Origin: a virus
Taxonomy: Duplodnaviria > Heunggongvirae > Uroviricota > Caudoviricetes
Direction: 5' to 3' (one strand)
Virus record (IMG/VR): IMGVR_UViG_2667527592_000002
Length of the DNA stretch: 64,000 nt
The notes under the pieces were generated by a model. That model searched no databases, was not told the origin of the DNA, and saw nothing but the letters and a program-made list of their open reading frames with translations. Of the stretch, positions 23,590 through 64,000 are shown in pieces (position 1 is the stretch's first letter; every line of letters begins with the position of its first letter). Both the position numbers and the translations under genes were made by a program.

Positions 23590-23591
23590 AT

Positions 23592-23667: not shown

Positions 23668-23677
23668 GCACAACAGG

Positions 23678-24908: not shown

Positions 24909-24909
24909 T

Positions 24910-25038: not shown

Positions 25039-25045
25039 GTAATCT

Positions 25046-34481: not shown

Positions 34482-35288
34482 ATGGAAAGCACCAAAACAA
34501 TTCAATACCGCTTGCGTAATGGCCTGCTGGTGGCTGTTAACGCCGACATGTCACTGCCGTTTGACACGATTGAACGCACTATCATGACGTATCTCGGCTT
34601 TAATGAAGAACTGAATGAAGAGCATGGCGTAGCTATATGGAGTGATGCAGACAGCGGCGTTCGTCGTTACATCACCGCCAGGGGCAAAGACTACTCTCTG
34701 GAAGAACTGTTTGCCCTTGCGCAGTCTTTCGAATGTGTAGCATTAGACCTGTTTAATGATCCTGCTATAGCGCAACGACTTATACGCGAGCTTGGGCTAT
34801 CCGTTACACCAATTATCTTTAAAAATGGCAGCCTGACTGGCACATGGCGCGTAGAACGCATCTCAAACTACCTTCCATATAACCGACAGTTAAATGGAGT
34901 AATCTCCGGCGTTAATCAGCCCGTAGCGTGTGAAAATGTAAATCTGGTTGTCGCTGTTTTGGCAACCGCATGTCGTGTTATCGGTTTGGCTAAACAGGCA
35001 TTTATTCATTTCCCAAATGGTGCAGAAGGTAGCGCAGAGATTATCGCGTGTGATTTCGAATTTACCTGGATGCTACGCGAATATCTGGACCAAACAGTGT
35101 TCCGCGCCGAAGAACTGGATATGTATATCACGTCAACGATTCCTGATGATGTGCGTGCTGAAGCAATCGCCACAGCAAGGGCCAAATGCCGTGCGGCGAT
35201 TGCAGAACAGGCCAAAGAAGAACAGTCCGATGAAGTCGCGGCAGATGTGGAGGCAGAGGTAGCGGAGGATGCTGATGCTGACGCCTAA
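34482..35288 (+). CDS. hypothetical protein with acidic C-terminal tail
   Basis: 268 aa; C-terminus ...EEQSDEVAADVEAEVAEDADADA. Confidence 0.35.
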   Translation: MESTKTIQYRLRNGLLVAVNADMSLPFDTIERTIMTYLGFNEELNEEHGVAIWSDADSGVRRYITARGKDYSLEELFALAQSFECVALDLFNDPAIAQRLIRELGLSVTPIIFKNGSLTGTWRVERISNYLPYNRQLNGVISGVNQPVACENVNLVVAVLATACRVIGLAKQAFIHFPNGAEGSAEIIACDFEFTWMLREYLDQTVFRAEELDMYITSTIPDDVRAEAIATARAKCRAAIAEQAKEEQSDEVAADVEAEVAEDADADA

Positions 35289-36375
35289 AAACATCACCGA
35301 ATTACCAGAGTGGAGAGAGCTGGTAAGCAAATATAGCCATGACTGGGCATTAGCAGCAGAAGAGTTGATGGGTGTTAAGTTAACCCACCAGCAAAAGCTA
35401 ATTGTTGAGGCGATTCAACAAAAAGGTTCAGCAGTCAGCGTCACCACTCCTGAAGGGATAGGCCAAAAGACGGTTATCGCTATAATTAGTATTCTTTATA
35501 CAATCCTGATGCCTGAGTCTAAAACGGTTATTGTTTCCCCAAAGTTCTATAATTGTCGCAGGCAAGTTATCCAATACATAAGTACGTATTGGGATAGAGT
35601 CAGTAACAGAATCCCATTGCTGGGAGAATATTTTAAAGTCGATGGAAACGGCATCAATCATCGTTACCGGGAATATTGGGGCTGCGAAATTAAGCCATAT
35701 CACCGAAATTATGAGGAAGGTTTCGGTGGATATTATGCTGAACATCTTTTAATCATTGTTACGGAGGCGGCTCTTGCTGGCGATCGGCTATTCAGCATGT
35801 TAAGAGCATCGTTAGTAAGTGACGATTCACGTATACTTTTAATGTCCGCTCCTTCAGAGGAGGAGCATGGACACTTTTACGATTCCCATCATGGTCGTGC
35901 TAAATCAGAAGAAAATCCATGTGGTATTTATACAGCCATCAAGCTGAACGCAGAAGATACCCCCATTATTTCTCAAGGTTATCTTGATAACATTGCAGAA
36001 ATATATGGTGGTAAAAACAGCGATTACTACCGTCGTATGGTTCTTGGTGAGTTTCCTGGTATTAGGGGGGCTGTTCTTGAATCAGATATGCCGAAGACAA
36101 TGCGCTTTTCGATGCCTGATGGTAGTGAATGGATAATGCCATTACGAGTGATAGCCCGGCATCATGCACAGCACCACGCCAAAAAACATGGCGTTACAAC
36201 ATTGGAGTGGTTGAAATCGCACACCATTCCACTCTTCACTGCAGATCACAATGCTATCGTTGAGTGGGCAAAAACAATTCCGTGGGAGAATGTTGCTGAA
36301 TACGCCCACATGCTAAAACCGCCGAAAGACAGGCAAGAAATTAGCTGGCTGACAGCAGAAAAAATCATTGAGTGA
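35269..36375 (+). CDS. terminase-large-subunit-like ATPase-domain paralogue, degenerate Walker motifs
   Basis: shares ...HFYDSHHG.AK...NP.GI.TAI.LN.E..P...QG.L...AEIYGG... with PacB-like 28405..29913; Walker A TPEGIGQKT, Walker B LLIIVTEAA (DE replaced by TE). Confidence 0.5.
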   Translation: MLMLTPKNITELPEWRELVSKYSHDWALAAEELMGVKLTHQQKLIVEAIQQKGSAVSVTTPEGIGQKTVIAIISILYTILMPESKTVIVSPKFYNCRRQVIQYISTYWDRVSNRIPLLGEYFKVDGNGINHRYREYWGCEIKPYHRNYEEGFGGYYAEHLLIIVTEAALAGDRLFSMLRASLVSDDSRILLMSAPSEEEHGHFYDSHHGRAKSEENPCGIYTAIKLNAEDTPIISQGYLDNIAEIYGGKNSDYYRRMVLGEFPGIRGAVLESDMPKTMRFSMPDGSEWIMPLRVIARHHAQHHAKKHGVTTLEWLKSHTIPLFTADHNAIVEWAKTIPWENVAEYAHMLKPPKDRQEISWLTAEKIIE

Positions 36376-36381
36376 TAGTAG

Positions 36382-36412
36382 GAAGCCCGCCTGGTTGAGC
36401 GGGCTTCTTTTC
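36382..36412. terminator. bidirectional hairpin terminator
   Basis: gaagcccgc-ctggttga-gcgggcttc + ttttc between convergent genes. Confidence 0.55.
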
Positions 36413-36791
36413 AAATATTGGAACCATATAGTTCACGTAGTTTTTCCGCTACTGAAGATACGGGGATTTCACCAGTTGCAGCCCCCACCGCAAGTTCCAC
36501 CAGCACGGGAGAATCATATACCTGTATACCGTTACGGCGTAGAAATAGCAGCGCACTGTTTAGCGCGGTACGCTTATTGGCATCATTGAATATATGCCCT
36601 CTCGCAGTAGCCACCAGGTAGGTTGCGGAGACTTCGAAAAGGTCGGTGATCTCTTCGTAGGCAACTCTGGCCTGAACTCTCCCGATAATGGCCTCTGCCC
36701 TACCCGGATCTGACATTCCCGGCAGGCCGCCGTAGCGGCTTATATTCGCATCATGAAGCGCAATAAGTTCTTCCGGTGATATATGCCTCAT
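36411..36791 (-). CDS. doc: Doc toxin (Fic-fold kinase)
   Basis: [40 protein letters not shown]... near-identical to P1 Doc as recalled. Confidence 0.95.
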
Positions 36792-37846: not shown

Positions 37847-38597
37847 GGTCCGCCTCATGTTTATCAGCCACCAGCGGCAATAAAGCCTTCGCCATTTCAT
37901 GAACCAACATGGCATCAATGACGCCTAGCGTATGGCCCGGCTTAATCTTTAATGCGGCCTCAAGATAGCCTCTTTCCAGAGTGGTTTTTACGCTTTTCCT
38001 GGGCGCTTGTTGGGAACTATCCGGAAAATCCGGATGGTTCCCAGCCTCATAAGCTACCCGCAACCAGTGCATGAATGTTTCCGCAGACACACAACCGCAG
38101 TCCACATCGATTTTCCCGCGTTGCTGTTCCAGCCATTGCTCAAAATCTAACTTGTAAGCCTTACTTTCAGACTTAACTTTCTGAGACGCTATGCGAGCTG
38201 CTTCATACTGTTCACGAGTGACAACCGATGTAAACGCACTGCGATCAAGGTCACTGATATCGCAAATAATGCCATCAATGGAATAATTCTTTGATGATTG
38301 GTAATTTTTATGGCGCGTACCAAAAAGAACCGTAGCGCGACTACTACCTGGCATCGTAATGGATAGATGGCAAAAATCTTTTCCATCAGGCCATCCACGC
38401 CCCTTAGATAATTCCTTCACTAACAAGTCAATCAGTGTCATAGCTTTACCATCCTTGCAAGGCGCTAAAGCTATTTTGGCAAGCTCCAATACTTCATCTG
38501 CTGTGTATCCAGCACCGTGACCATACATTTCGATACGGGAAATAATATCTGAAATACGCTCTTTAGTGATTCTTGTCATAGTTTTATTTCCTTGCAT
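37830..38597 (-). CDS. hypothetical protein
   Basis: 255 aa ORF. Confidence 0.35.
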   Translation of the reverse strand: MQGNKTMTRITKERISDIISRIEMYGHGAGYTADEVLELAKIALAPCKDGKAMTLIDLLVKELSKGRGWPDGKDFCHLSITMPGSSRATVLFGTRHKNYQSSKNYSIDGIICDISDLDRSAFTSVVTREQYEAARIASQKVKSESKAYKLDFEQWLEQQRGKIDVDCGCVSAETFMHWLRVAYEAGNHPDFPDSSQQAPRKSVKTTLERGYLEAALKIKPGHTLGVIDAMLVHEMAKALLPLVADKHEADHANES

Positions 38598-38785
38598 GGT
38601 TCGCCTTTACGGCAAACAGCTACACGGTCATTTCTTACATTAACCACAGTCACCGTTCCGTCATCGCATTGAATAACGATGAAAGAGTGTTCATTCTCTT
38701 TTGTGCAATGTTGCTGTTCCCCTGCTGTAACAGTGAGGGGAATTAATAAAATAATAATTACTGCGAATTTACTAAATGTTGCCAT
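38576..38785 (-). CDS. small secreted protein / putative lipoprotein
   Basis: N-terminal signal-like MATFSKFAVIIILLIPLTVTAG, four Cys. Confidence 0.3.
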   Translation of the reverse strand: MATFSKFAVIIILLIPLTVTAGEQQHCTKENEHSFIVIQCDDGTVTVVNVRNDRVAVCRKGEPCKEIKL

Positions 38786-38809
38786 AGCAATCTTTCTTTC
38801 TGTTTTTCA

Positions 38810-39103
38810 TTATGGTTGAATCCAGTTATCTTCAATAGCAATGCTCAATCTTTGTAACCATTCTGCTAATTTCAGCATTGCTTCTCTTTCGCTTAAACCA
38901 CGAGGAAAATCATCAAGCGATATTGTTGGCTTGAAGTTTCCCAAATTATCCATTTCAACGGTCAGATTTTGCTCCAGCACGGTATTCCTTACGCGGCTAT
39001 TGTGCCGAAGCAAATATACTGAACGTGATTTATTGGTTTTGTGGTCGAACGTATATTCGGTAAGTATCATCTGGCTTCCGCCATGATTATTACCGCGCCA
39101 CAT
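38810..39103 (-). CDS. hypothetical protein
   Basis: 97 aa ORF. Confidence 0.3.
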   Translation of the reverse strand: MWRGNNHGGSQMILTEYTFDHKTNKSRSVYLLRHNSRVRNTVLEQNLTVEMDNLGNFKPTISLDDFPRGLSEREAMLKLAEWLQRLSIAIEDNWIQP

Positions 39104-39410
39104 AATTACTCCGTGTTAATTTTACCTTTATCGCGAACACCTTTACCGGTTTATCGCCGAAGTGCGGGTGTGTGATTATCTTGATTTCATAGCCGTCATA
39201 CGGAACATCAATTCTGCGGCTGGAATCGTCGCGCTTCGGATATCCCTTTGTGATAATCAGGCGGTCATACTTACGGTTAACGAGGCGCTTATTCCAGTAG
39301 TCATTACACAGGCGATACTCTTCCGTTTTCTCCCCGCGAATCATGGCATCGAAGTATTCACCTTTAACGGCAAGTTGCAGGTTAGCCATTACCTCACCTC
39401 CAGTCTCCAT
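39090..39410 (-). CDS. hypothetical protein
   Basis: 106 aa ORF. Confidence 0.3.
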   Translation of the reverse strand: METGGEVMANLQLAVKGEYFDAMIRGEKTEEYRLCNDYWNKRLVNRKYDRLIITKGYPKRDDSSRRIDVPYDGYEIKIITHPHFGDKPVKVFAIKVKLTRSNYVAR

Positions 39411-39649
39411 ACCGCCTGACCAATCCGGCTGGCATGGGTATCTTTGGATACTGTTCCGTCTTTAGCCAGCTCCATAAGAATTTTGCGCAAATCTGCCGAA
39501 CGCCATTCTTCATCAGGAAATTCCTTCTCCATTGCCAACCGCAGATTCCAGGTTGCCATCCTGAATGGATATTCCCCGCCGAGAGCTTTATCTTGCAGGG
39601 CAGCCCGGGAACGCATCACCTGCAAAACCTTCTCTTTTACATCCATCAT
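39389..39649 (-). CDS. hypothetical protein
   Basis: 86 aa ORF. Confidence 0.3.
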   Translation of the reverse strand: MMDVKEKVLQVMRSRAALQDKALGGEYPFRMATWNLRLAMEKEFPDEEWRSADLRKILMELAKDGTVSKDTHASRIGQAVWRLEVR

Positions 39650-40659
39650 TTCGCCTCCTGCGGCGGTTCTGGTAGCGGCATCCAGTGAGTTACTTTCGAT
39701 GCCGGTTCTTCCCCATCGTCAGTAACTGCCCACCATTTGTTTCTCGACCAATCGTAATACCCTTCGAAGGTATTGCACTCAGTCCAGCCGTAAGACTTAC
39801 CCCAACACCAAACATACTGTTTATCGTTCGGCATTCGCTCACTACAGCTTATCCAACTATCCGGAATGACCGGAGAGTTGCCAGTCAGTCTACGCAAAAT
39901 AGCCTTAACAGCCTCAATACGGTCATCATCGCAACTTTCCAGCGTATCTATGCGATCGAGCATGATGATGGCGTTATCAATATCAGGATTGCCGGTCCAC
40001 TCATTACCGCGATTGGATTCGGCAGTCTGGTTGCCGCGTACTGGTTGATTCTCGGCTTTACCCTGTCTGTCGTTGCTGCATGAATGCCCTTCCAGCCAGG
40101 CCAATGCTTGTCGCATGAAATACGCAATATGTTTGCCGTGGTAATCGTCTTCATTGATGTGAAAAGCGATACTGCGGATGTATTCAATTGCGTTTTCAAT
40201 GGCCTCCGGCGTTATCGGCGCTGACATATTTTGATTTTGGAGTGCCAAGACGCGGCTGGCATCCTCAACACCTTTAACGGCATCTGCGCAGTAGTTATAG
40301 CGATTGCATTCCACTAACTTTTGCTTTAGGTTTTCAATTGCTTGCGCGACATCAGCCTGTATTACCGGCGCTGGCGGTGCGGTATAAAACTTCGTCCCCA
40401 ACGGCAACAACTTCATCGCTTTTTCTCCCTTAATGATGCGATAAGTTGATTTCCCGCCAAGGTCTACCGTTCCATCCATAACAAGGCCATATCGCTTCTC
40501 TGAAACTTCACCAATAGGCTCTGCTTCCAGCGATGCCAGTGCGATACGAAACACATTGGCAAGCAGGCTGTCTGAAGATTGGTTATCGTGCGCCGGGTCG
40601 CTCAGGAAACCAGTGATGAATGATTTAATCTCCGCGTTTTCTCTGGTAATAGTGATCAT
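39646..40659 (-). CDS. hypothetical protein with DUF551-like C-terminus
   Basis: C-terminal ...DKQYVWCWG...VTHWMPLPEPP. Confidence 0.4.
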   Translation of the reverse strand: MITITRENAEIKSFITGFLSDPAHDNQSSDSLLANVFRIALASLEAEPIGEVSEKRYGLVMDGTVDLGGKSTYRIIKGEKAMKLLPLGTKFYTAPPAPVIQADVAQAIENLKQKLVECNRYNYCADAVKGVEDASRVLALQNQNMSAPITPEAIENAIEYIRSIAFHINEDDYHGKHIAYFMRQALAWLEGHSCSNDRQGKAENQPVRGNQTAESNRGNEWTGNPDIDNAIIMLDRIDTLESCDDDRIEAVKAILRRLTGNSPVIPDSWISCSERMPNDKQYVWCWGKSYGWTECNTFEGYYDWSRNKWWAVTDDGEEPASKVTHWMPLPEPPQEAK

Positions 40660-41058: not shown

Positions 41059-41231
41059 CTTACTGCGTACCCTTTCTTCCGCCTGTTCTGTGACGCGCTA
41101 GGCTTACGCTTTGCGGCAAAAGCCACCTGACCAAATGGATGGAGTACCGCTATCTTATGGTTGCTGATAACCAGCTCCACCACACGCACAGGTCGCTGTA
41201 AAAAAAGTCGTTTTGCTTTACGGTTTTTCAT
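41055..41231 (-). CDS. small basic protein (paralogue 2; 58 aa, below ORF-track cutoff)
   Basis: hand translation MKNRKAKRLFLQRPVRVVELV...; same start context tgctttacggtttttcat; ATGA overlap with paralogue 1. Confidence 0.25.
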   Translation of the reverse strand: MKNRKAKRLFLQRPVRVVELVISNHKIAVLHPFGQVAFAAKRKPSASQNRRKKGYAVR

Positions 41232-41403
41232 CGTTTTGCTCTCCTGCGTTTCTTTGCTGCTCGTCGTGCCGCCGCAATACCTGTATGGCGGCGCTTTGGT
41301 GCCGGGATGATGTTGTCAGCCATCAGGACATGCGGCTTTGTAATTAGCGCAGAAGCCCAAAAACGAGTCGGATACGGTAACAAGCCGATACATGCCACAC
41401 GCA

Positions 41404-41883
41404 TTACTCACCTTCTTTGATGCGAATGCCTGCGGCGCGTGGCACATTAACTTCCACGATGCGCACTGTTGGTTTGTACATCTCAATCGCTGTCAGCCAG
41501 TCAGCGCCGGTCATACGCTTTTCTGCATCGCCATTAGTCCACTTAACCGGTACACCAATAGCCTTCATCGCAATTTCTATTTCCCCGGCAATGGCGCTTT
41601 TCCCGCAACCAGTAAAACCAGATACAACGACAAGAACTTCGCCTTTTGCTGGTTTTATTTCCCGCGCCTCCACCTCTGCAATTCGGCACATAGCATCGAT
41701 ATTTGTGTCTTCCTGGCGTTTAACTTCATCCAATAATGCCAACGCGATATCTGGCGAAAAGTGCTTCATAAAATCGTTAAGCGCATTAATTCGCTGATCG
41801 AAAGGCATTACAGGCGCTTCACCAGCAATTTTTGTTTTTTCAGCAATTTCACGAAGCTTTTGATAGTCAATTTTGTTTGTCAT
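41404..41883 (-). CDS. P-loop protein
   Basis: ...VVVSGFTGCGKSAIAGE... Walker A-like. Confidence 0.35.
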   Translation of the reverse strand: MTNKIDYQKLREIAEKTKIAGEAPVMPFDQRINALNDFMKHFSPDIALALLDEVKRQEDTNIDAMCRIAEVEAREIKPAKGEVLVVVSGFTGCGKSAIAGEIEIAMKAIGVPVKWTNGDAEKRMTGADWLTAIEMYKPTVRIVEVNVPRAAGIRIKEGE

Positions 41884-42758
41884 GCCACTACCTCTTCGAA
41901 TTTCAACTCCAATTGGTCACCCCAGATTTCACATGATTCGGAACACGAACCAGTATCAAACCGCTTGGCCTGCACCATCGCCTGATACAAATTTCTGTAG
42001 TCGCTGTCGGCATACATTCTGGCAATCCCGTCAAGCGTCAGGTGACCACGGTACATAACGTCTTTACCTGTTCTGCGATGACCATCCCTGACGTGTTTGC
42101 CTGTAACCAGTTCATTAAAAACCCGCATCAGACCTGGTTCGTCTTTACATGCAAGCCCCAGCTTTTGCGTTGACTTTTTGATGCAAAAAACACAGTTCCC
42201 GAGGTGCTCCGGGATTTGCAAATCAAAAGGTTGTTTTCGCCACCACCGGATAACATCCGACTTATCAAAATCTGACAGCTCGGCAAGATACCGGACGCCC
42301 GGTTTCGGTTTCAGCCTACGGGGTTCGTCCGCACGAATACCCAGCCATGTGATGTAATTCCCTCGCCCAAAATGGTCATCGCAATATTTCGTGAAAGGGG
42401 TGAGTTTTAGCCTGTCAGTACAGAACGCGCCGCCGATGTATGGCGTACCGTACTTTTTAACCATGTCCATAAACGGTTTAAGCACCGGCATTCGCGTCTG
42501 AATATCCTTTGGTTCCCATTCCGTATAACCATTTGGCTGCCCAAGTTCTGGATTTATATCGACCTGCAACACCGTTAGCGGTACATTCCAGAACTTCACA
42601 ACCTCACGAATAAAGCGATACGTCAGAGGATGTTCACAGCCGGTATCCATAAAAATGAAATGGACGCTAGCGCCAGCTTTTCGCTGTGCTTCCATCAGAT
42701 GAACGAGATAAGCCGATGTTCGTCCACCTGAAAAGCTGACGACTTGATGCATACTCAC
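41880..42758 (-). CDS. pap: PAPS-reductase-like / PP-loop ATP pyrophosphatase family (Pap-like)
   Basis: N-terminal VVSFSGGRTSAYL PP-loop motif; 292 aa; near phd-doc as in P1. Confidence 0.75.
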   Translation of the reverse strand: MSMHQVVSFSGGRTSAYLVHLMEAQRKAGASVHFIFMDTGCEHPLTYRFIREVVKFWNVPLTVLQVDINPELGQPNGYTEWEPKDIQTRMPVLKPFMDMVKKYGTPYIGGAFCTDRLKLTPFTKYCDDHFGRGNYITWLGIRADEPRRLKPKPGVRYLAELSDFDKSDVIRWWRKQPFDLQIPEHLGNCVFCIKKSTQKLGLACKDEPGLMRVFNELVTGKHVRDGHRRTGKDVMYRGHLTLDGIARMYADSDYRNLYQAMVQAKRFDTGSCSESCEIWGDQLELKFEEVVA

Positions 42759-42761
42759 GGT

Positions 42762-43454
42762 TTATTCCTGAACGCGCTTAAACTCGATTACCCATACCCA
42801 CGGGTTAGATAGCCAGTTATCCTGCCCGTAAATACTGCGCCAGATATCACCAAAACCAACGCGATAAACAGCTTCCGGCGGCGTAATTTTGTACATCGCC
42901 GGAGATGCGCCTTCTGCTTTAGCATCTGCCTCGCTCATATCACGCAGCCGTTCCACACGCACGTCGGTAATTTCCAGCAAAATGCGCGATGCCCAGCGCG
43001 GCATGTGAATTGATGGACGCCACCCGCCATCAAATTTTTCATTCACAGTGTGAGGTTTCCAGTCGGCATCATCGGGTATCGACCACAAGCCGTAATCACC
43101 CGGCTTTTGCTCACAACTGGCCCGATAAATCCTTGCTGCGTTCTTCTCATCGCCACGACAAAGGTTGTCGTTCCAGTCCACACTGCAACCATCCTCATTG
43201 CCTAATATCGCCCACGCCTCACGGACCCATATGCGATCACCAACGTTACCGAACGGGCATAAACCATGTTCAGGTGCATCCATAACGTGGGTATAGACAC
43301 CATTGCGTTTCTTGGTCGGTTTACGGATAACCAGGCAGTTATCGGCCCTGACATTTTTTACAGGTCGGCGAGTCTGCGTCTTCCTTCCTTCGAGGATGGC
43401 CCTGACCATCTCATCGTTAAAAATCATCCCGCGTTCTTTCATTTTTTGATCCAC
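42762..43454 (-). CDS. hypothetical protein (ASCH-like N-terminus?)
   Basis: ...MIFNDEMVRAILEGRKTQTRR... Confidence 0.35.
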   Translation of the reverse strand: MDQKMKERGMIFNDEMVRAILEGRKTQTRRPVKNVRADNCLVIRKPTKKRNGVYTHVMDAPEHGLCPFGNVGDRIWVREAWAILGNEDGCSVDWNDNLCRGDEKNAARIYRASCEQKPGDYGLWSIPDDADWKPHTVNEKFDGGWRPSIHMPRWASRILLEITDVRVERLRDMSEADAKAEGASPAMYKITPPEAVYRVGFGDIWRSIYGQDNWLSNPWVWVIEFKRVQE

Positions 43455-43458
43455 CTCA

Positions 43459-46045: not shown

Positions 46046-46290
46046 TGTGGTGGCTCCTGCTTTTCTGCCTTCAATACCATGCGCGAACCATCATCCAGCT
46101 CCCAATTAATTTCACCGCCTTCAGCCATGACTAGATGCCAAACGAGTTGTGCGGCCTCGTTGGTTACATCACGACCGCGATCATTGCCGACACGACGTTT
46201 TGTTCCATCCCCTAAGTCACGCATTTTTGCCAACACGATGGTTTTTGATAGCGGTGAAAAACCAAGCTGTAGTCGTGCGGTATTACTCAC
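46042..46290 (-). CDS. hypothetical protein
   Basis: 82 aa ORF. Confidence 0.3.
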   Translation of the reverse strand: MSNTARLQLGFSPLSKTIVLAKMRDLGDGTKRRVGNDRGRDVTNEAAQLVWHLVMAEGGEINWELDDGSRMVLKAEKQEPPQ

Positions 46291-47084
46291 TGTTTACCTC
46301 CTTTTCGAAGCTGTTCGGCGATATCTTCGAGAACGCCATCAGAGAATGAGCGGTCAAAATCGCCTTCCCGCGCATTAGCCATAAACTCAGTAGAGGTAAG
46401 AATCATCCGGGCAATATCCGCGGCGTTCTTCGCAGTATCATCAATAAAACCAGCTTCCCAAGCAGCCAGCATCCTGTTCGCCACAAAGTAAGCGCCCTCC
46501 TTGCGTGCTTCAGTCTTCACTTCATCCAGGAAAGTGTCGGTCGCAGGAGTGGTTTTTTGTGGTGATAGGGCGATACGAATTGTTTCAAGAGCTGGATCTA
46601 TTTCCACTGTTGGCACCTTGATAAAACCAAGCTGCACGCCATTCATAATGAACGTGCGGCGATCCTCACATATCGCCTTCAGTCTCGCATTCTCCGCAGC
46701 CAGCGCCGCGCGATTACCCTCCAGCTCTGCAATGCGCTGTTTTGCGGCATCAAGTTCAATCGATAATTTTTCCAACTGCTCTTTATGCTTCTTGTATTCC
46801 TGATATGCGTGCCAAGACTGACCTTTGCGCACACTATCAGTAATATCAGTAATCTGTTCTGGTGTTAGCGTGGTCAGTGGCTGTGCTGGGAAAATCAGCA
46901 CTTTCCCGGAATCCCAATCAAAACCAGCGTGAATTGACTGAACCTCAACTGAGGGTGTTGAACCAATGCTGCCAGGCGAATGAACAACGATCGTTACATC
47001 CATATCGCGACGATGGCTGTGGTTATTGGACAAAATACGATTCACCAACTCAGAAAATTTGGAGAATTTCATGCGGAGCCTCAA
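46287..47084 (-). CDS. coiled-coil protein, paralogue of 47488..47991
   Basis: shared C-terminal block ...FL.E...EAR.EG......R.LAA...GFI......R..DV.RMIL...E..AN... Confidence 0.35.
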   Translation of the reverse strand: MRLRMKFSKFSELVNRILSNNHSHRRDMDVTIVVHSPGSIGSTPSVEVQSIHAGFDWDSGKVLIFPAQPLTTLTPEQITDITDSVRKGQSWHAYQEYKKHKEQLEKLSIELDAAKQRIAELEGNRAALAAENARLKAICEDRRTFIMNGVQLGFIKVPTVEIDPALETIRIALSPQKTTPATDTFLDEVKTEARKEGAYFVANRMLAAWEAGFIDDTAKNAADIARMILTSTEFMANAREGDFDRSFSDGVLEDIAEQLRKGGKQ

Positions 47085-47491
47085 TATGCAAAATAGACAG
47101 TTGCCACACCGTTATAGTGATCAAACGATACGGCGTTTACTTCATAGCTGGCAGGAAGCTTCGAGCCGAGAACGTATCCGGGCCACGTTTTCCATGGAAT
47201 TTCTCTACTCTCACTATCCCCATATACCGTACATCCAAGCGAACCTACAGCCTCGTCAGAACGTTTGCCGCATGTTATGAAACCTATATTTTTCTTGCTG
47301 GCCTTAATGGCGATTGGGTGAACACTGGCTGATGCATTGGCAGCACGCTGTGACTGTTGGTTTGCGATATTCGCAGAGTTCGCAGCAGCTACAGCAGCCG
47401 TGGTCGCGGCGGTAGATGCCACAATAACTGCTGAAGCCTGCGCCTGTTGGGTAATGGTCAGCAATGCCGCCACAAAAATCATCTTCTTCAC
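47081..47491 (-). CDS. secreted protein with signal peptide
   Basis: MKKMIFVAALLTITQQAQA signal-like N-terminus. Confidence 0.35.
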   Translation of the reverse strand: MKKMIFVAALLTITQQAQASAVIVASTAATTAAVAAANSANIANQQSQRAANASASVHPIAIKASKKNIGFITCGKRSDEAVGSLGCTVYGDSESREIPWKTWPGYVLGSKLPASYEVNAVSFDHYNGVATVYFAY

Positions 47492-47991
47492 TTGTCAGCT
47501 CCTTTGCGAATCTGTTCCGCCCATTCTTCAAGGGATTTCTCCGCATATTCACCGGACAGGCCATCAATCGGGTGCGATTCATTAGCCAACTCTTCTTTCG
47601 CTGACAGAATCATGCGCGTAACGTCGAAAACTTCACGTAAAGACTTATTGATAAATCCGTGGTTGAAAGCAGCAGCAAGACGGCTTGCGGTATAGTTAAT
47701 CCCCTCGTTGCGAGCCTCCGCACGAATTTCAGCCAGGAAAGCATCGGTGACTGGCATATTTCCTGTTGCCTTCATGGCCTCCAAAATAACCAGAACGCCA
47801 TCTCTCCCTACCACCTCGCAGATAACCTCGGTGTTGTCGCCAACAACATCGCAGAATGCCTGAACTGCTTTACGAGCAAGTGCATTCTCCGCCGCTAGCG
47901 CAGCACACGCTTTCTCAAGTCGGGAAATTTCCGTTACATACTCAGCGTTACGCTCTGCCAGTTGCGCGGGCGTTAAACCTTCAGACTTCAT
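47488..47991 (-). CDS. coiled-coil protein, paralogue of 46287..47084
   Basis: 167 aa; shared C-terminal domain. Confidence 0.35.
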   Translation of the reverse strand: MKSEGLTPAQLAERNAEYVTEISRLEKACAALAAENALARKAVQAFCDVVGDNTEVICEVVGRDGVLVILEAMKATGNMPVTDAFLAEIRAEARNEGINYTASRLAAAFNHGFINKSLREVFDVTRMILSAKEELANESHPIDGLSGEYAEKSLEEWAEQIRKGADK

Positions 47992-51784: not shown

Positions 51785-52096
51785 ATGAAAAAAATAGATT
51801 TCACTTATTCTGCCGCCACAATCCAGCGACGTTTCAGTCTCATAAGGGAAGTGGAACTATCAAAAAACTTGTATCAAATTCTACTGGATGAAGAGTTTTC
51901 ACTGATGGTTATAGCAGAAAAATTAGCTATGCCGAACGACCGGCACAAGGTCATAGCCAGCCTCGATCTGGTGACAAACAGATACTGGGAGAAAGAGGAA
52001 CTACATGAGGCGGGAGTAATTCGTGACCTGATGGAGAATTCCGTTCCCCGCCGCTATCGTGCAGGGAACGGCATCTCCGTGGTTAAAGGTGTTTAA
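51785..52096 (+). CDS. hypothetical protein
   Basis: 103 aa ORF. Confidence 0.3.
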   Translation: MKKIDFTYSAATIQRRFSLIREVELSKNLYQILLDEEFSLMVIAEKLAMPNDRHKVIASLDLVTNRYWEKEELHEAGVIRDLMENSVPRRYRAGNGISVVKGV

Positions 52097-52485
52097 AGCT
52101 CACCTGCGCGCTGTTTTTCAAGCACAGATTTAACATTTGGCGCTTTCCCTTTAAAAGAATGGAAAGTGCCACATTTTTCTGTTTTAACCTCGCGCAGAGC
52201 TTCGCCATCGGCGTTCTGCCATTGATGGGATAATGTCATATCACCGCGAGAAGGAACATCCAGCGAGTACAGCGTGTAAGTTCCCCCCATCTCCGCATAC
52301 TCCTGGAACACATAGCTCATTACGTCAGATTCAGTTTTTCGGTGTGCGTTATCAACCTTATTCCCATTCAGAAATATGGCATCTGGATAGATTTTTATAT
52401 CAAACCGACCGCACTTAACTTGTAAATTTCCGGCGCTCGCGATCAAAGGGAAAGACGCCAGTAAAGCAATAGCCAATCTTTTCAA
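52093..52485 (-). CDS. secreted / periplasmic protein
   Basis: signal-like MKRLAIALLASFPLIASA. Confidence 0.35.
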   Translation of the reverse strand: MKRLAIALLASFPLIASAGNLQVKCGRFDIKIYPDAIFLNGNKVDNAHRKTESDVMSYVFQEYAEMGGTYTLYSLDVPSRGDMTLSHQWQNADGEALREVKTEKCGTFHSFKGKAPNVKSVLEKQRAGEL

Positions 52486-52505
52486 TTCTGCCTCCGCTGC
52501 GTAAC

Positions 52506-53129
52506 TTATTGCCCGTATTTTTTACACCATTGCTCTGCCATTTGTTTGGCTAAAGGCCCGGCTACTGCACTGTATTCTGCTGTTTTACTTTGCACACATG
52601 AAGCAGATGGTTTTTTATTTCGCTGCTCGGTTAGTTTGCGCTCATAAGCCATCATGCTATCGAACCCGGCAATATCACTTTGGCGAAGCATTCCCTTTTT
52701 AACCAAAAATTGCTGCCCCTCTGGCACCAACGCAAGCATAAAAAGTGGTTGCAATAACTCACCTAATCCTTGCTGGCGATACACTTCGAATTGCTGCCAT
52801 CCCTGACTTAATCTGGAAAGAGTATCTTTGGTTGAATAACCTGTTTTTGTTATAGCTTTGTCCGTCAGATATGCTGTATATGCAAAAACGCAAAAGTCAG
52901 TTTTACCAATAAACTGAGTTCCAACAGGCCGTAATGGAATGCCCTCCCTCTTGCAAAAGTCCATAATTGCCGCTTGTGAATGATCCCCACCAGCGTTATT
53001 CATAACCTGCTGCCCTGCCCTGAATTGTGCAGGTAACGCAGTTGCATTGGCAGTATTAACAGATACGCATCCCAACATAGCCGCGAGCGCGGCCCCTAAA
53101 ACCCTTAACTTCACTACACCATCCTTCAT
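52506..53129 (-). CDS. secreted / periplasmic protein (possible superinfection-exclusion type; speculative)
   Basis: N-terminal signal-like region, 207 aa; position near immI-like module. Confidence 0.35.
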   Translation of the reverse strand: MKDGVVKLRVLGAALAAMLGCVSVNTANATALPAQFRAGQQVMNNAGGDHSQAAIMDFCKREGIPLRPVGTQFIGKTDFCVFAYTAYLTDKAITKTGYSTKDTLSRLSQGWQQFEVYRQQGLGELLQPLFMLALVPEGQQFLVKKGMLRQSDIAGFDSMMAYERKLTEQRNKKPSASCVQSKTAEYSAVAGPLAKQMAEQWCKKYGQ

Positions 53130-55928: not shown

Positions 55929-56657
55929 TCATCTTTTTGAAAAATCAATTTCCGTTTTATCAAATAAATTTGAAATATCAGCAACCAATTTATTAAAATC
56001 ATGATCGCCATTATAAAGCGAAGTCTTCTTTATTGCCATTACAAAATCATATAACTTTTCTGGGGAGTCAATACCAACCCCTCTACTTTTAAAAAGCTCA
56101 ATGATAACTCCAACATCATCATATAATAACTTTATTGCCGCTATAATCTCTTTTTGCTGCCTAAGAAATCTCTCAAGTTCATTTTTATTTTCATCCATAA
56201 TTCTTTTGTTGAATTGTGTATCATTAATACTTTTTATTATTTCAGTCTCTTTTATTTGCAACGCCTTTCTTTTATTTTGATCCATGTCGGCATCCAAATA
56301 CCTTATCTCTGTATATATTTTACTTGTTAGCTTTGATACGCAAAGAGTGACAATCGGAGCTGCAATTGATGCAATAATTCCAAAAATAAATGGCAAGCCA
56401 AAATGATAAAACCAAGGAGACAAAACGCCTTCATAAACTAGAGGAATCTTACCTCCAACAAATGTTACAGATAAAGTATATAGGATATCATCCTTTGACT
56501 TCATCAATATTAGTATATCTTTCCAATTAATAATTAAAAAAGAAATGAATATATATGCAAACACTTTATTAAAAAGCTTGTCTTTTATGGCATCTCCAAA
56601 AGATACTTTGATTAGATCATTTTCAGTCAATTTTTCTGTTGATGAATCTGTATTCAT
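55929..56657 (-). CDS. membrane protein encoded by strongly AT-rich DNA
   Basis: 242 aa; two predicted TM helices then K/E-rich helical domain; base composition visibly more AT-rich than flanks. Confidence 0.5.
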   Translation of the reverse strand: MNTDSSTEKLTENDLIKVSFGDAIKDKLFNKVFAYIFISFLIINWKDILILMKSKDDILYTLSVTFVGGKIPLVYEGVLSPWFYHFGLPFIFGIIASIAAPIVTLCVSKLTSKIYTEIRYLDADMDQNKRKALQIKETEIIKSINDTQFNKRIMDENKNELERFLRQQKEIIAAIKLLYDDVGVIIELFKSRGVGIDSPEKLYDFVMAIKKTSLYNGDHDFNKLVADISNLFDKTEIDFSKR

Positions 56658-56719
56658 ATAAACTACCGGGATTACTAATATCTATTTTATGAAAATAGCG
56701 GTCATCCAGACCGCCAAAC

Positions 56720-57079
56720 TCAAATACCAACCAAGCTTTCAAGAGGAATGCCAAACTGGGAATGTAAACGGCGAATCATAGGTAACGTCAAATTTCGTGT
56801 CCCATTTAGCACTTCGTAAACACGATTTGACTTACCAATCGCCGGTTCCAGATCCTTCACGGTCAGCCCTTGCTGTTCCATACGGAATTTAATGGCCTCA
56901 ATAGGTGATGGTGGCTCAATTGGGTAATGTTTTTTCTCGTACTCCTCAATGAGAAGACACATGACCTCAAAGAAATCACCTTCCGGGGTGTTCATTTCCG
57001 GTTCGTTATCGAACATCGGTTCGACCGCACGCAGTGCGGCCTCATAATCTTGTTCTGTACGGATAGGTTTAATGTTCAT
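56720..57079 (-). CDS. higA: HigA-family antitoxin (HTH)
   Basis: ...LTVKDLEPAIGKSNRVYEVLNGTRNLTLPMIRRLHSQFGIPLESL...; downstream of toxin (hig order). Confidence 0.75.
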   Translation of the reverse strand: MNIKPIRTEQDYEAALRAVEPMFDNEPEMNTPEGDFFEVMCLLIEEYEKKHYPIEPPSPIEAIKFRMEQQGLTVKDLEPAIGKSNRVYEVLNGTRNLTLPMIRRLHSQFGIPLESLVGI

Positions 57080-57082
57080 GAT

Positions 57083-57388
57083 TTACTCCAGTTCTATTGT
57101 ATCCGCGTCAATGGCATCGTATTCCTTGTGTGTTCCAATAAATTTAACGAACATCCATCCTCGCTGATAAGCAATTGCGACAATTAACCTGTAATCATTT
57201 CCCTTAATATTGAACACCACGCGCCTGTTTTTAAGGATGCTGGCTGTCCGGTACTGTTCTTTGATCTCAGCCGGATTTTTCCAGTCAGCCTTTGTTGCTT
57301 CATCAACCCATGCCTTTAATGGCTGTTCTGCATCGGGATTCTTCGCCCAGAAATCCCTTAGTGTCTTTACCGAAATTATTTTCATCAC
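57083..57388 (-). CDS. higB: HigB-family toxin (RelE/ParE superfamily)
   Basis: ...RRVVFNIKGNDYRLIVAIAYQRGWMFVKFIGTHKEYDAI... Confidence 0.75.
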   Translation of the reverse strand: MMKIISVKTLRDFWAKNPDAEQPLKAWVDEATKADWKNPAEIKEQYRTASILKNRRVVFNIKGNDYRLIVAIAYQRGWMFVKFIGTHKEYDAIDADTIELE

Positions 57389-57415
57389 AGATTCCTTCTT
57401 TCTGAAAGTATAGTA

Positions 57416-57460
57416 GTCCCAATATGGGACAATGTAAAGTACTTTAGTCCCATGCTGGGA
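57416..57460. promoter_or_regulatory. paired palindromes upstream of higB (candidate HigA operator)
   Basis: GTCCCAATATGGGAC (57416..57430) and TCCCATGCTGGGA (57448..57460). Confidence 0.4.
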
Positions 57461-57530
57461 TATGAATTGAAATCACAATCTCCAGACAATGCACCCTCGA
57501 TACCTGATAAATCGACCTTTGAGGATGCTT

Positions 57531-58322
57531 ATGGGCCGTTTTGACGAATGGTTTGCTGACGATGCAAACCTGGCAAGTAAGGAGTCAGAACATGACAGCA
57601 CGCAGAGAGAAACGCCAGCGGCGGTTGAAGCGGATGCAGGAAGCGCGCCGGAACATGGCAATGCCGGACCGGATTCATTCAGCATTCTGGAAGAGCAATC
57701 CACCGCCGAAGCTGATAGCCATGATAATTTTGCTGATAGCAACGGTGGCCTTACTCCGGACGCTGGCGAATCAAATATAGCCATACTTCCACCTTCCCTG
57801 GCTGGCAGAGAACCGACTCCACAGCTAAAAGCACGCTATAACGGGCATAAAGCCTTTAACGACCAAATCCGCGCAGACTGGATGCTGATTATTGAATCCA
57901 GCCCAGACGCGTTTCAGGCTCTCTTATATCGACCAGATGTTGGCACATATGGGGTAGTCAGCGACGAAACAGGAGAAGAGTCATTCACTGAACTGGATAA
58001 CAACCAACGCGAACTGACTTACCAGGAACCTGAAATCGTTTATGTGCTGGATAACCCGGACGGGCGTGACTCTTTCCATGCGATTGACGCAGACGGTGAG
58101 CAGGATGGCTTAACCGATGATGTTCTGATTCTGCGTATTGCAGCAAATAACGTCCCCGTCGGATCAATTCTTGAATGGAATGAAGAGATGGTAAACGGCG
58201 TAGCCCGCCGCTGGTTGTACGTGCACCGTATTTTTAGCTACGGCACACAGCATGTTGGTTCGCTTTACTACTGCATACCGGCCAGGAATTTTGATACGAC
58301 TCAAAACGGAGTGATCGAATGA
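57531..58322 (+). CDS. hypothetical protein, acidic N-terminal half
   Basis: ATG at 57531 with GAGGA RBS; ORF track starts earlier. Confidence 0.35.
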   Translation: MGRFDEWFADDANLASKESEHDSTQRETPAAVEADAGSAPEHGNAGPDSFSILEEQSTAEADSHDNFADSNGGLTPDAGESNIAILPPSLAGREPTPQLKARYNGHKAFNDQIRADWMLIIESSPDAFQALLYRPDVGTYGVVSDETGEESFTELDNNQRELTYQEPEIVYVLDNPDGRDSFHAIDADGEQDGLTDDVLILRIAANNVPVGSILEWNEEMVNGVARRWLYVHRIFSYGTQHVGSLYYCIPARNFDTTQNGVIE

Positions 58323-60779: not shown

Positions 60780-61685
60780 ATGAGATCAGTCGCTTTCAAA
60801 AATATCTTCATCTATCGTCTTTCACGCGAAGTTAACTGGGATACCGCAGAAGTAAATGCTGCCCTTAGCAAGTTTGTGTTTACCCCATGCGGTTCTCAGG
60901 ATATTGCTAAAGCTGGTTGGACCCCCGTCCTTGGCGACAACCTCACCCATGAATACAAGGGTTTTCTTCTGATACAGCATAAACGAGAGGAAAAAATCCT
61001 ACCTTCTCAAGTGCTCAAAGAAGAGCTACAGAAAAAAATCCTGAAACTTGAAGAAGAACAAGACAGAAAGCTGAAGAAGACCGAAAAAGATTCGCTGAAG
61101 GATGAAGTGCTTCACTCTCTTCTTCCTCGTGCTTTCACGAGAAAATCAGTCGCTAAAATCCTGATAGACCGAAGCAATCATCTGGTTTTTGTCGAGGCGA
61201 GCAGTGCTAAAAAAGCAGAGGATCAGCTGGCTTTGTTACGGAAATCTCTTGGCAGCTTGCCCGTTGTCCCCTTCTCTCCGAAAGACCCATTAGAACTGAC
61301 CATCACTGGCTGGATTAAAAATGGCTTCCCGAACGGTTTCCGTGCCGGTGAGGAAGCGACCTTAAAAGCATTGCTTGATGATGGCGGCGCGGTCCGCTGC
61401 AAAAAAGTGGACCTGCTATCCGACGAGATCATGAGTCATATAGAAGCTGGTAAGGTTGCAACCACAGTTGCGGTTAACTGGCAAGACCGTGCATTTTTCA
61501 GACTGAATGACGATATGAGTATCAAGGCTTTGTCGTTCAGCGACGAATTGTACGACCAGAACGACGATATTGATCGAGAGGATGTTGCTCAACGATTTGA
61601 CGCTGACTTTATCCTGTTTACTGCTGAATTATCAGCGATGTTCACTTCGCTGGTGGAGGCCGTTGGTGGTGAAGCAGAACGTTAA
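60780..61685 (+). CDS. rdgC: RdgC-like recombination-associated protein
   Basis: ...[12 protein letters not shown]..., ...FTPCGSQD..., ...[21 protein letters not shown]..., ...[16 protein letters not shown]... colinear with E. coli RdgC as recalled. Confidence 0.85.
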
Positions 61686-61698
61686 CAATAGACCTCTT

Positions 61699-62349
61699 AT
61701 GGTGAGTCTTTGTGATTTCACGGGGAAAATGGTCGCCCCCTGGCTGGAGCATGGTATAGATGCTGTTATCGTCGATCCACAACACGCAAAGACCACAGAT
61801 GAGCTGATGCAATCAGGCGCAGTTCTGACACGTATCAGTGCGATTATCGATAGTGATGAAGTTTATGCTTTTCTCCGAAATAATTTACAACGTATTGTGT
61901 TTTTAGCTGGTTTTCCGCCGTGCACGGACCTTGCTGTTTCCGGTGCGCGCTGGTTTGCACATAAGGCTGACAAAGATCCGGTTTTCCAGTTCAAAGCGAT
62001 GCAAGTCGTCTGGCAGTGTTACGACATTGCAAAGATGATTGGTTGCCCGTACATGATTGAAAACCCGGTCAGCCAAATATCGACATTCTGGCGTAAACCT
62101 GATCACATCTTCCATCCTTACCACTTCACTGCATATTGCAAGGAAGACAATTACACCAAAAAAACATGCCTCTGGAGCGGGCAGGGCTTTGTCATGCCTG
62201 ATGCCCTAATGGACGAATCATTAGGCAAGCCAGATAACAGAATCCATACCGCGCCACCTGGGCCTGAAAGGGCTAATTTTCGAAGTGCTACTCCGAATGG
62301 ATTCGCAAAAGCAGTTTTCGAAGCAAATAAGGGGGTGCTCTATGAGTAA
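61699..62349 (+). CDS. short C5-cytosine methyltransferase-like protein (atypical motifs)
   Basis: ...LAGFPPCTDLAVSGARW... (PC motif IV-like) and ...MIENPVSQ... (ENV-like motif VI); only 216 aa; motif I degenerate. Confidence 0.4.
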   Translation: MVSLCDFTGKMVAPWLEHGIDAVIVDPQHAKTTDELMQSGAVLTRISAIIDSDEVYAFLRNNLQRIVFLAGFPPCTDLAVSGARWFAHKADKDPVFQFKAMQVVWQCYDIAKMIGCPYMIENPVSQISTFWRKPDHIFHPYHFTAYCKEDNYTKKTCLWSGQGFVMPDALMDESLGKPDNRIHTAPPGPERANFRSATPNGFAKAVFEANKGVLYE

Positions 62350-63247
62350 ATCTCTAGTAAGCACAGCCATAGAAAGACATGATTCGATGGCGGAAATTAG
62401 CTATATGCGCACCATTCGGACTCCGGATGAATACGAGCGTCCGATCTTCAAATGGGTAGGCGGTAAATTTTCAGAGTTGCCTATAGTGCTTGAGCATCTA
62501 CCACACGGTAAGCGGTTAATAGAACCATTCGTTGGTGGCGGTTCCGTATTTACGAATGCAGGATTTCGCCACAACCTGCTTAATGATATTAACGGTGACT
62601 TGATTAACTTCTATCAGACATTGCAGCGAGAAAGACATTCTCTAGTCACGCTGTCATATAGTTTTTTCCAAAATTACAACAACGCTGACGCTTACCTCGA
62701 AGTGCGTGAGGCATTTAACAGAGGAAAGTATGACCAACTACATCATGCTGCTGCCTTTTTGTACCTTAATCGGCACTGTTTTAATGGCGTAACACGGTAC
62801 AACCAAAATGGCGAGTTCAACGTAGGGTATGGTAAATACAAAGCGCCCTACTTCCCACATGCAGAGATGGAGGCATTTTTGGCTGATGACGTACTCAAAA
62901 ACACTTCCTTTGTATCAGGTGACTTTGCTGGCGTCATCGAGGCGGCTGGTGAAGGCGATGTGATTTTTTGCGATCCGCCGTATGAACCGCTGCCGGATAC
63001 AGAAGGGTTTACCAGTTATTCAGGAAATAGCTTCCGTTTCGACGAACAGAAACGGCTGGTATCTCTATTGGTGGAAGCCCACCAGCGCGGCGCTAAGGTA
63101 GTGATTACAAATAGTGGTGCTCCAAACATCCGTGAACTATATGAAGGAAACGGGTTTAAAGTACATCATATGGCAGCCAGACGGTCGGTTTCCTGCAAGG
63201 CGTCAACACGTGTAGTTGCTAACGATATAATTGCAATAATGAAGTAA
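62342..63247 (+). CDS. Dam-like N6-adenine DNA methyltransferase
   Basis: ...IFKWVGGKF..., ...EPFVGGGSV..., ...FCDPPYEP...; start overlaps upstream gene. Confidence 0.8.
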   Translation: MSKSLVSTAIERHDSMAEISYMRTIRTPDEYERPIFKWVGGKFSELPIVLEHLPHGKRLIEPFVGGGSVFTNAGFRHNLLNDINGDLINFYQTLQRERHSLVTLSYSFFQNYNNADAYLEVREAFNRGKYDQLHHAAAFLYLNRHCFNGVTRYNQNGEFNVGYGKYKAPYFPHAEMEAFLADDVLKNTSFVSGDFAGVIEAAGEGDVIFCDPPYEPLPDTEGFTSYSGNSFRFDEQKRLVSLLVEAHQRGAKVVITNSGAPNIRELYEGNGFKVHHMAARRSVSCKASTRVVANDIIAIMK

Positions 63248-63249
63248 AA

Positions 63250-63277
63250 AACGCCGCAGTAGCGGCGTTTACTTTTT
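63250..63277. terminator. bidirectional hairpin terminator between Dam-like gene and glnS
   Basis: aacgccgc-agta-gcggcgtt flanked by A-run and T-run. Confidence 0.6.
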
Positions 63278-63295
63278 CATGTGGCGAAATACCTA

Positions 63296-64000
63296 TTAAC
63301 CTAACTTCGCCCAGGTATCACGCAGCCCAACGGTGCGGTTAAATACCGGTTTTTCCGCCGTAGAATGGCGGCTGTCGAGGCAGAAATAACCTTCACGCTC
63401 AAACTGGAATGCTTTACCCGCTACCGCTTCTTTCAGCGACGGTTCAGCAAAGCCTTGTTTGATCACCAGCGATTCCGGGTTAATCACCGACAGGAAATCA
63501 TCCGCAGCACCTGGGTTCGGTACACTGAACAGACGGTCGTACAGGCGAATTTCAACCGGCAGCGCATGTGCCGCGCTCACCCAGTGAATAACGCCTTTCA
63601 CTTTACGACCATCTGCCGGATCTTTGCTTAAGGTGTCGGCGTCATAAGTACAGAAGATGGTGGTGATATTGCCTTCGGCATCTTTCTCCACGCGTTCAGC
63701 CTTAATGACGTAAGCATTACGCAGACGCACTTCTTTACCCAGCACCAGACGTTTGTACTGCTTGTTAGCTTCTTCGCGGAAATCGGCGCGGTCGATCCAA
63801 ATCTCACCGCTAAACGGCACCTGACGGCTACCCATTTCCGGTTTGTTTGGATGGTTCGGCATGGTGACCATTTCGCCTTCGCCCTGGTAGTTTTCGATAA
63901 CCAGTTTCACCGGATCGATAACCGCCATTGCGCGCGGGGCATTTTCGTTGAGATCTTCACGGATGCAGGATTCCAGCGACGCCATCTCAATGGTGTTGTC
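63296..64000 (-). CDS. glnS: glutaminyl-tRNA synthetase, C-terminal part (gene continues beyond window)
   Basis: ...[46 protein letters not shown]...[15 protein letters not shown] matches E. coli GlnS C-terminus as recalled. Confidence 0.9.

Follow-up and report, generated by a model that had tools for sequence, protein, structure and literature searches.

We found that the DNA analysed here, a stretch of 64,000 nucleotides referred to below as the window, is very probably a 64-kb part of a P1-related phage-plasmid of the D6 type, with a captured host glnS transcription unit as cargo, and that the junction between phage genes and glnS at the end of the window is internal to this element. That glnS is cargo of phage D6 and its relatives is already known, from the D6 genome record (Gilcrease & Casjens 2018) and from a 2019 paper. 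To this our analysis adds the limits of the glnS cassette, the origin of its terminator, an upstream junction common to its alleles, sister plasmids without glnS, the finding of zero chromosomal copies of the element, evidence for gene conversion, and a presumably Dam-sensitive promoter kept beside a phage Dam gene. These additions make the picture easier to test and leave it, as a whole, unchanged.

The window is colinear over its full length (1-64000) with the circular genome of D6, running from D6 position 32441 through 1/91159 to 60882; 54.2 kb were aligned, at 85-98% identity and mostly at 92-98%. When the last 10 kb of the window were compared with the phage collection, Escherichia phage D6 was the sole match, with 96% coverage and 96% identity. 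The D6-aligned stretch crosses the rox/cre region, and the D6 annotation lists genes similar to P1 c1, pacAB, darB, repL, tail and baseplate genes; the P1-type modules that it places in the aligned segments are the c1 repressor, a Cre-type recombinase and its site, the pacAB terminase, DarB, RepL, tail/baseplate genes and tRNA genes. Over D6 as a whole, cre/lox, head genes and dmt are also annotated as P1-like. The window itself contains an ORF of DarB size. Several segments in the early/accessory region of the window do not correspond to D6. Because phage D6, according to its annotation, belongs to the P1 group, the element is P1-related, in agreement with the sequence-only reading of the window, which had called it P1-type.

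The features to which we refer below are the following.

12245-19081: ORF of DarB size, 2,278 aa (ORF list of the window)
61669-62349, plus strand: homologue of D6 orf64, a putative DNA-cytosine methylase according to the D6 annotation (ORF list)
62342-63247, plus strand: predicted Dam-type (D12 class) N6-adenine DNA methyltransferase, 301 aa (PF02086, E=2.5e-56; D6 annotation)
63230-63242, no strand assigned: one copy of a direct repeat, ATTGCAATAATGA, matching its partner at 12/13 positions (repeat search)
63248-63295, no strand assigned: spacer of exactly 48 bp that separates the methylase gene from glnS, which converge on it
63249-63270, both strands: predicted bidirectional intrinsic-terminator hairpin, AAACGCCGC-AGTA-GCGGCGTTT, G+C-rich, with a 9-bp stem
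63296-64000, minus strand: 3' 705 nt of glnS, encoding GlnRS residues 320-553 and the stop codon, anticodon-binding domains (translation, identity to plasmids)
10759-10771 of plasmid NZ_CP027309.1 (L001), outside the window: repeat partner, ATTTCAATAATGA, about 12 nt past the other end of the cassette

The Dam-type methylase gene, which likely starts with the ATG at 62342 and stops with the TAA at 63245-63247, is homologous to D6 orf63 and to part of P1 Dmt; it ends the run of backbone genes, the cargo cassette coming next. The orf64 homologue overlaps its start by 8 nt and gave no match in a Pfam search. In some D6-like plasmids the two genes are fused; in one of them, pPSS-10_3 (L004), the fusion encodes an 854-aa Dmt-like protein. 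The layout described by the sequence-only reading, a phage gene running up to a shared terminator with the glnS C-terminus 48 bp beyond, was borne out: the methylase stops at 63247, the hairpin occupies 63249-63270, and the glnS stop codon lies at 63296-63298. A terminator scan scored the hairpin as terminator-like on both strands (L001 8950-8971), and its predicted folding energy is -17.8 kcal/mol on the plus strand and -19.2 kcal/mol on the minus strand, with z of about -3 relative to shuffled sequences. On the glnS strand the hairpin is followed by a run of six T residues, the T-tract running into the methylase stop codon. The minus-strand glnS frame is open from position 64000 for 235 codons, free of internal stops, and ends ...RDTWAKLG*. 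As that reading had also noted, there is no integrase ORF near the junction in the ORF list of the window. A repeat search for direct repeats found no convincing att-type repeat at the junction; the sole bracketing pair is the 12/13 13-mer listed above, which encloses the glnS cassette and not the phage.

The junction recurs widely. Among complete E. coli assemblies, 73 records matched window positions 62300-64000 over the full length, six being 100% identical, and all the matches listed (30 of the 73) were plasmids, of about 75-216 kb and mostly about 90 kb. The same junction was present in 99 PLSDB plasmids of E. coli, Salmonella and Shigella, and in phage D6 itself (MF356679 / NC_050154), where orf63 (“site-specific DNA-adenine methylase”) is convergent with orf62 (“glutaminyl-tRNA synthetase, similar to E. 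coli GlnS”). A search of 5,426 complete E. coli genomes with the methylase region (window 61700-63290) returned 101 matches, every one on a plasmid and none on a chromosome. Over 62300-64000 the window is identical to one plasmid, NZ_CP027309.1 (L001), in which glnS is complete (1,662 bp, 553 aa) and has a predicted promoter of its own; this arrangement is shared by four more plasmids, found in E. coli, E. fergusonii and Salmonella. Five fetched records of relatives, among them L001 and the two glnS-less plasmids described below, are circular. In all loci examined, full-length glnS is followed by orf61, the ParA-like ATPase and StbB/ParM genes, and then by tail and head genes. The window ends inside glnS, and its own continuation into phage-plasmid DNA is taken from these identical and near-identical records. 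The recurrence of the junction, the full-length glnS with phage-plasmid genes beyond it in relatives, and the zero chromosomal matches therefore place the end of the window inside a cargo gene of the phage-plasmid, short of the host chromosome. Thus, what the sequence-only reading had taken for a boundary between phage DNA and host chromosome is not one, since phage-plasmid genes resume after glnS in the relatives.

To delimit the cassette, we compared L001 with two plasmids that lack glnS, pCUVET20-PYO4.3 (L003) and pPSS-10_3 (L004), and with the K-12 chromosome (L005). Homology between the backbones of L001 and the glnS-less plasmids breaks just past the methylase stop codon and returns at the 3' end of orf61, while homology to the chromosome covers positions 9001-10746 of L001, that is, the glnS coding sequence and about 87 bp upstream of it. 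Both glnS-less plasmids are D6-like, belong to the same replicon cluster and have an empty site, in which the methylase gene is followed by about 140 bp and then by orf61. They carry a different terminator downstream of the methylase gene, and glnS-positive and empty-site plasmids do not agree in the final three methylase codons. The existence of D6-like sister plasmids without glnS qualifies the statement, made in PMC6799933 with citation of the D6 genome paper, that glnS is a moron in all D6-like genomes. In roughly 550 other plasmids, mostly of E. coli and of about 90-100 kb, only the methylase part matched, at about 69% identity; we presume these to be P1-type plasmids, and the glnS cassette is unmatched in them.

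Both ends of the cassette resemble the ends of a chromosomal glnS unit. The predicted promoter of plasmid glnS (TTGTCA-17-GATCAT, L001 10725-10697) has hexamers identical to those of chromosomal glnS, and these hexamers, together with the GATC in the -10 box, are conserved in 6/6 plasmid alleles. In the same six alleles chromosomal homology breaks off at a common position, about 12 bp before the -35 box, and gives way to the same plasmid-specific sequence; an upstream junction common to all six argues for one capture event. At the other end, a hairpin of the form AACGCCGC-N(3-7)-GCGGCGTT follows chromosomal glnS at a distance of 12-30 nt in 17 of the enterobacterial species genomes that we fetched, including Salmonella, Citrobacter, Kluyvera, Enterobacter, Atlantibacter and Pseudescherichia. 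The idea that E. coli lacks a glnS terminator of the plasmid type proved wrong: in E. coli and E. ruysiae it lies 68 or about 198-199 nt downstream of chromosomal glnS, behind at least one REP-like palindrome. On the plasmid it lies 26 nt past the glnS stop codon, with no REP between. Judged from these comparisons, the window hairpin is the native enterobacterial glnS terminator, captured together with the gene. Since native promoter, coding sequence and native terminator are all present, the insert is one complete transcription unit of about 1.8 kb. Lying between convergent backbone units, with its own predicted promoter, its own terminator and an empty site in relatives, the glnS cassette has the organization of a textbook phage moron.

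A search for IS remnants or flanking repeats around the cassette returned only the 12/13 13-mer. We roughly estimate the chance of such a repeat placement at 0.01-0.02; the repeat may be capture microhomology or a trace of recombination, or it may be due to chance. Apart from the terminator, the 180-bp and 44-bp flanks of the cassette had no match in the other loci fetched. As to the donor, E. ruysiae gave the top protein match (99% at the amino-acid level), but its nucleotide identity is 95.0%, compared with 95.6-97.0% for E. coli, and in the tree described below the main plasmid clade lies beside E. coli; E. ruysiae was therefore rejected as the specific donor.

The GlnRS encoded by L001 is identical to that of E. 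coli K-12 at 548 of 553 positions over the full length (99%). The earlier attribution of glnS to a host stands, the origin being Escherichia. The five substitutions (I97, K106, V112, E510 and L552) are all conservative, and the last residue is lost, so that the plasmid type of C-terminus reads ...AKLG* where chromosomal copies read ...AKVGE*. The GlnRS signatures are intact (HIGH at 41-44, VMSKR at 268-272), and the protein matches the Pfam domains PF00749 (E=6e-130), PF03950 and PF20974. Plasmid glnS thus probably encodes an ordinary, catalytically competent GlnRS, and aminoacylation of tRNA-Gln is to be expected of it from its 99% identity to the characterised enzyme. Altered specificity was considered and found no support, given that the only changes are the five conservative substitutions and the missing last residue; presumably, none of the substitutions falls at the position of a known mischarging mutant.

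We then compared glnS alleles. In nucleotide sequence, every chromosomal E. coli allele shown or counted shares 95.6-97.0% identity with that of the window, and none more. The distance from the window allele is 1.2-4.4% for four sampled plasmid alleles and 5.2% for the allele of E. fergusonii pEF-4. A neighbour-joining tree placed the main plasmid clade beside the E. coli chromosomal alleles, and pTB423 and pEF-4 deeper within Escherichia. Several of the alleles are mosaic. That of D6 is of the plasmid type over its first ~900 nt, of the O157/K-12 type from nt ~1050 to ~1650, and again of the plasmid type over its last few nucleotides, while the 3' half of the window allele is like the chromosome of strain 3059. 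Runs tests gave 0/20,000 permutations for the D6 and window comparisons and p=0.0012 for pTB423. We take this pattern as a sign that the plasmid copy has repeatedly undergone gene conversion by the glnS of host chromosomes, in tracts that end short of the 3' end of the gene, where the REP insertion breaks homology. Between plasmid alleles dN/dS was 0.02-0.03 (with dS up to 0.3), which is consistent with purifying selection on plasmid glnS, although this ratio is weaker as proof of selection on the plasmid copy since imported chromosomal segments may contribute to it in mosaic alleles.

Such clear mosaicism, with chromosomal-type 3' halves in both D6 and the window and significant runs tests, would also be seen if glnS were a neutral hitch-hiker, kept intact-looking only by conversion from the chromosomal copy. 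We regard this as quite unlikely, because the 5' half of the gene (nt 1-900) keeps a plasmid-specific haplotype, and over this half dN/dS is 0.03-0.05 relative to chromosomes and 0.02 between divergent plasmid alleles. Furthermore, in Salmonella the plasmids retain an allele of the E. coli type intact, and there the host glnS, only about 84% identical, is a poor conversion donor; no pseudogene annotation of plasmid glnS occurs among the listed records. The dN/dS of the 5' half, the intactness in Salmonella and the lack of pseudogene annotation favour, instead, a glnS that is maintained and functional.

We propose that an ancestor of the D6-type lineage captured one host glnS unit of about 1.8 kb, extending from the promoter (starting about 12 bp upstream of the -35 box) to the terminator. 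The unit would have been inserted where the phage Dam-type methylase gene and the orf60-orf61 (ParA-like) operon converge, in the gap that separates their 3' ends. The hairpin is predicted to end both the methylase and the glnS transcripts now, and glnS would be transcribed from its own, presumably Dam-sensitive, promoter. Lysogens, and probably infected cells too, would gain a second GlnRS gene, which should double glnS dosage in lysogens and raise it still higher during phage replication. We infer that the additional GlnRS is of advantage to the element or to its host; an essential enzyme could be supplied at higher dosage or backed up during lysogeny or the lytic cycle, or plasmid retention could be aided. 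A rationale based on glutamine demand was rejected: the Gln content of the E. coli proteome is about 4.4%, and that of the D6 proteome, at 3.8%, is not elevated. A literature search found no paper testing the function of D6 glnS.

Retention has been raised for D6-like glnS in PMC6799933, by analogy with a plasmid-encoded cysS. In its strict form, essential-gene retention or “addiction”, the cell depends on the plasmid copy for GlnRS after silencing or loss of the chromosomal one, which makes loss of the plasmid lethal. The gene is indeed essential, intact and of low dN/dS, and the cassette adjoins the partition genes. Our analysis nevertheless makes this explanation rather improbable, as a glnS copy (at least 80% of the gene) was found in 5,425 of the 5,426 complete E. 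coli genomes, with 5,428 chromosomal compared with 81 plasmid places; by this aggregate count over all the genomes, carriers would keep their chromosomal glnS. In addition, two or three toxin-antitoxin systems (HigB/HigA; Phd/Doc) are already present on the D6-like element.

The cassette keeps a GATC-containing -10 box and adjoins the phage Dam-type methylase gene, so that glnS expression could track methylation of the phage DNA, a lead only. Chromosomal glnS is derepressed in dam mutants, as reported by Plumbridge and Soll in 1987; RNA-seq confirmed this, with an effect of about two-fold (PMC12369378). The 1.7 kb of near-identity with an essential chromosomal gene, for its part, appears to mediate recombination with the host chromosome. 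Taken jointly, and tentatively, these two properties would make glnS more than a spare copy: GlnRS output would be tied to the methylation or replication state of the phage DNA, and the gene would at the same time act as a portable region of homology. As to the first part, output could rise on unmethylated DNA, either newly injected or fast replicating; as to the second, the near-identity could serve transient integration, chromosome mobilisation or essential-gene retention. We consider it unlikely that this joint reading holds.

The same homology bears on the possibility that the junction is a true prophage/host boundary, left by a P1-like element that integrated beside glnS or by homologous recombination within it. 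The 1.7 kb of near-identity (95.6-97.0%) between plasmid and chromosomal glnS would permit RecA-mediated single crossovers, the mosaic alleles point to past plasmid-chromosome recombination, and the far side of glnS lies beyond the end of the window. This is, however, very improbable. The glnS fragment of the window is the plasmid allele, being 100% identical to plasmid records, with the ...AKLG* end and the REP-less, 26-nt terminator spacing, whereas chromosomal E. coli copies are at most 97.0% identical, have the ...AKVGE* end and carry REP-like palindromes after the stop codon. Moreover, the D6 methylase region has no chromosomal match in the 5,426 complete genomes, and the site has neither an integrase nor an att repeat. 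Hence, of the earlier suggestion of an “integrated or chimeric P1-like element”, the second term stands, loosely, in the sense of a phage with a captured host gene, and the first does not. The other suggestion of that reading, an assembly artefact in which a phage-plasmid contig was wrongly joined to a chromosomal glnS region, had in its favour only the a priori oddity of a housekeeping gene beside phage genes, and is scarcely credible, as the junction is present in a deposited phage genome, in the 73 complete-assembly E. coli records and in the 99 PLSDB plasmids, which come from many laboratories, hosts and countries, and the glnS allele at it is unlike every chromosomal allele. More generally, a housekeeping gene beside phage genes is not by itself a sign of a prophage boundary or of misassembly; D6-type phage-plasmids carry glnS.

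Of the known systems, phage D6 is alike in gene order, convergent junction, terminator and upstream junction of the cassette, and the stretch from the methylase to the ParA-like gene is 98.2% identical; the glnS alleles of the two, however, are 2.0% apart and have different chromosomal-type tracts in their 3' halves. With P1 and P1-type plasmids, D6 shares the P1-like gene architecture, and the lifestyle of a circular plasmid prophage is common to them, but the partition module of D6 is of the StbA/ParM type, and the presumed P1-type plasmids have no match to the glnS cassette. Chromosomal E. coli glnS (b0680) is like the plasmid gene in its promoter hexamers with GATC in the -10 box, its 5' UTR, its 99% identical protein and its type of terminator hairpin. 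The plasmid gene differs from b0680 in having no REP-like palindromes before the terminator, in its ...KLG* rather than ...KVGE* end and in lacking the sequence above about -50; its divergence is 3-4.4%, whichever chromosomal E. coli allele it is compared with.

An essential aminoacyl-tRNA synthetase gene borne by a phage is an uncommon kind of moron. A comparable duplication of such a gene onto a plasmid is that of cysS in Salmonella Typhimurium ST313, for which, in the account that PMC6799933 gives of Canals et al. (2019), a role in maintenance was proposed and silencing of the chromosomal copy was measured. It differs from the case described here, in which the carrier is a phage-plasmid. 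Closer to the window are the D6-like plasmid prophages of Salmonella Typhimurium ST213 (pYU39_89; PMC6799933), which reside in a different host species and have the glnS moron and the same four tRNA genes; in the window, ARAGORN identified these as genes for tRNAs Asn, Thr, Ser and Met. ACA, UCA, AUA and AAU codons are enriched in D6, which fits the phage-encoded tRNAs.

The glnS genes carried by plasmids were found to differ in ancestry along their length. Two of them are set out here:

L001 (plasmid NZ_CP027309.1, identical to the window over 62300-64000), 8997-10658: plasmid glnS gene, shared with L002 and L086-L089; of this gene, only 63296-64000 falls within the window
L086 (E. fergusonii plasmid pEF-4), 3484-5148: divergent glnS allele, 554 aa, with the same insertion site and upstream junction as the other glnS plasmids

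The 5′ part of the plasmid alleles is plasmid-specific, and their 3′ tracts match differing chromosomal E. coli lineages. Because the alleles are mosaic, with support from runs tests (0/20,000 permutations for the D6 allele and likewise for the window allele; p=0.0012 for pTB423), comparison of the sequences points to recurrent gene conversion of glnS between plasmid and chromosome, which would proceed via the shared 1.7 kb. The pEF-4 allele differs from that of the window by 5.2%, its GlnRS ends in ...AKVEG*, and the spacer between glnS and the terminator is shorter. This allele may have been converted by an E. fergusonii chromosomal copy.

Codon compensation fits the tRNA genes of the window, but not the GlnRS gene:

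23514-25121: tRNA genes Asn-GTT, Thr-TGT and Ser-TGA, and a fourth that has a CAT anticodon

The last was called as Met, and could be of the Ile2 type instead. The codons that the four tRNAs are predicted to read, AAT, ACA, TCA and ATA, occur at 26, 16, 14 and 13.5 per 1000 codons, respectively, in the D6 ORF set; E. coli averages for these codons are well below those frequencies.

Immediately 3′ of the ParA-like operon, between orf61 and the glnS promoter, lies a repeat-rich segment:

L001, 10819-10887 (not part of the window): recurring TGGTACAC motifs, together with a palindrome of 13 nt, AAAGGTGCACCAA / TTGGTACACCTTT

Plasmids with an empty site have motifs (GGTACAC/GGCACCAC) resembling these repeats. 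The segment could be a partition site, an operator site or a terminator.

Alignment to D6 revealed further differences, and the Pfam matches in the segments absent from D6 include three proteins:

35254-36420, 37979-39854, 41060-43456, 46048-47881 and 52056-53071: segments absent from D6
39646-40659 (-): DUF551 protein
41404-41883 (-): Ead/Ea22-like protein
41880-42758 (-): PAPS-reductase-domain protein
56657-57784: toxin-antitoxin region, with a RelE/HigB-type toxin and HigA antitoxins in D6 and L001

The five D6-absent segments hold accessory early-region genes, several ORFs of which had no match in the Pfam search. The toxin-antitoxin region differs between the window and D6 over 57087-57469, where the alignment found no D6 homology.

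The methylase next to glnS also varies in form:

61669-63247: Dmt-like methylase region, divided between a 226-aa ORF and a 301-aa ORF, which overlap

Where the window has these two ORFs, the D6-like plasmid pPSS-10_3 has, in contrast, one 854-aa 'Dam family' protein. In the identical plasmid L001, PGAP labels the 301-aa gene a pseudogene with a 'missing N-terminus'.
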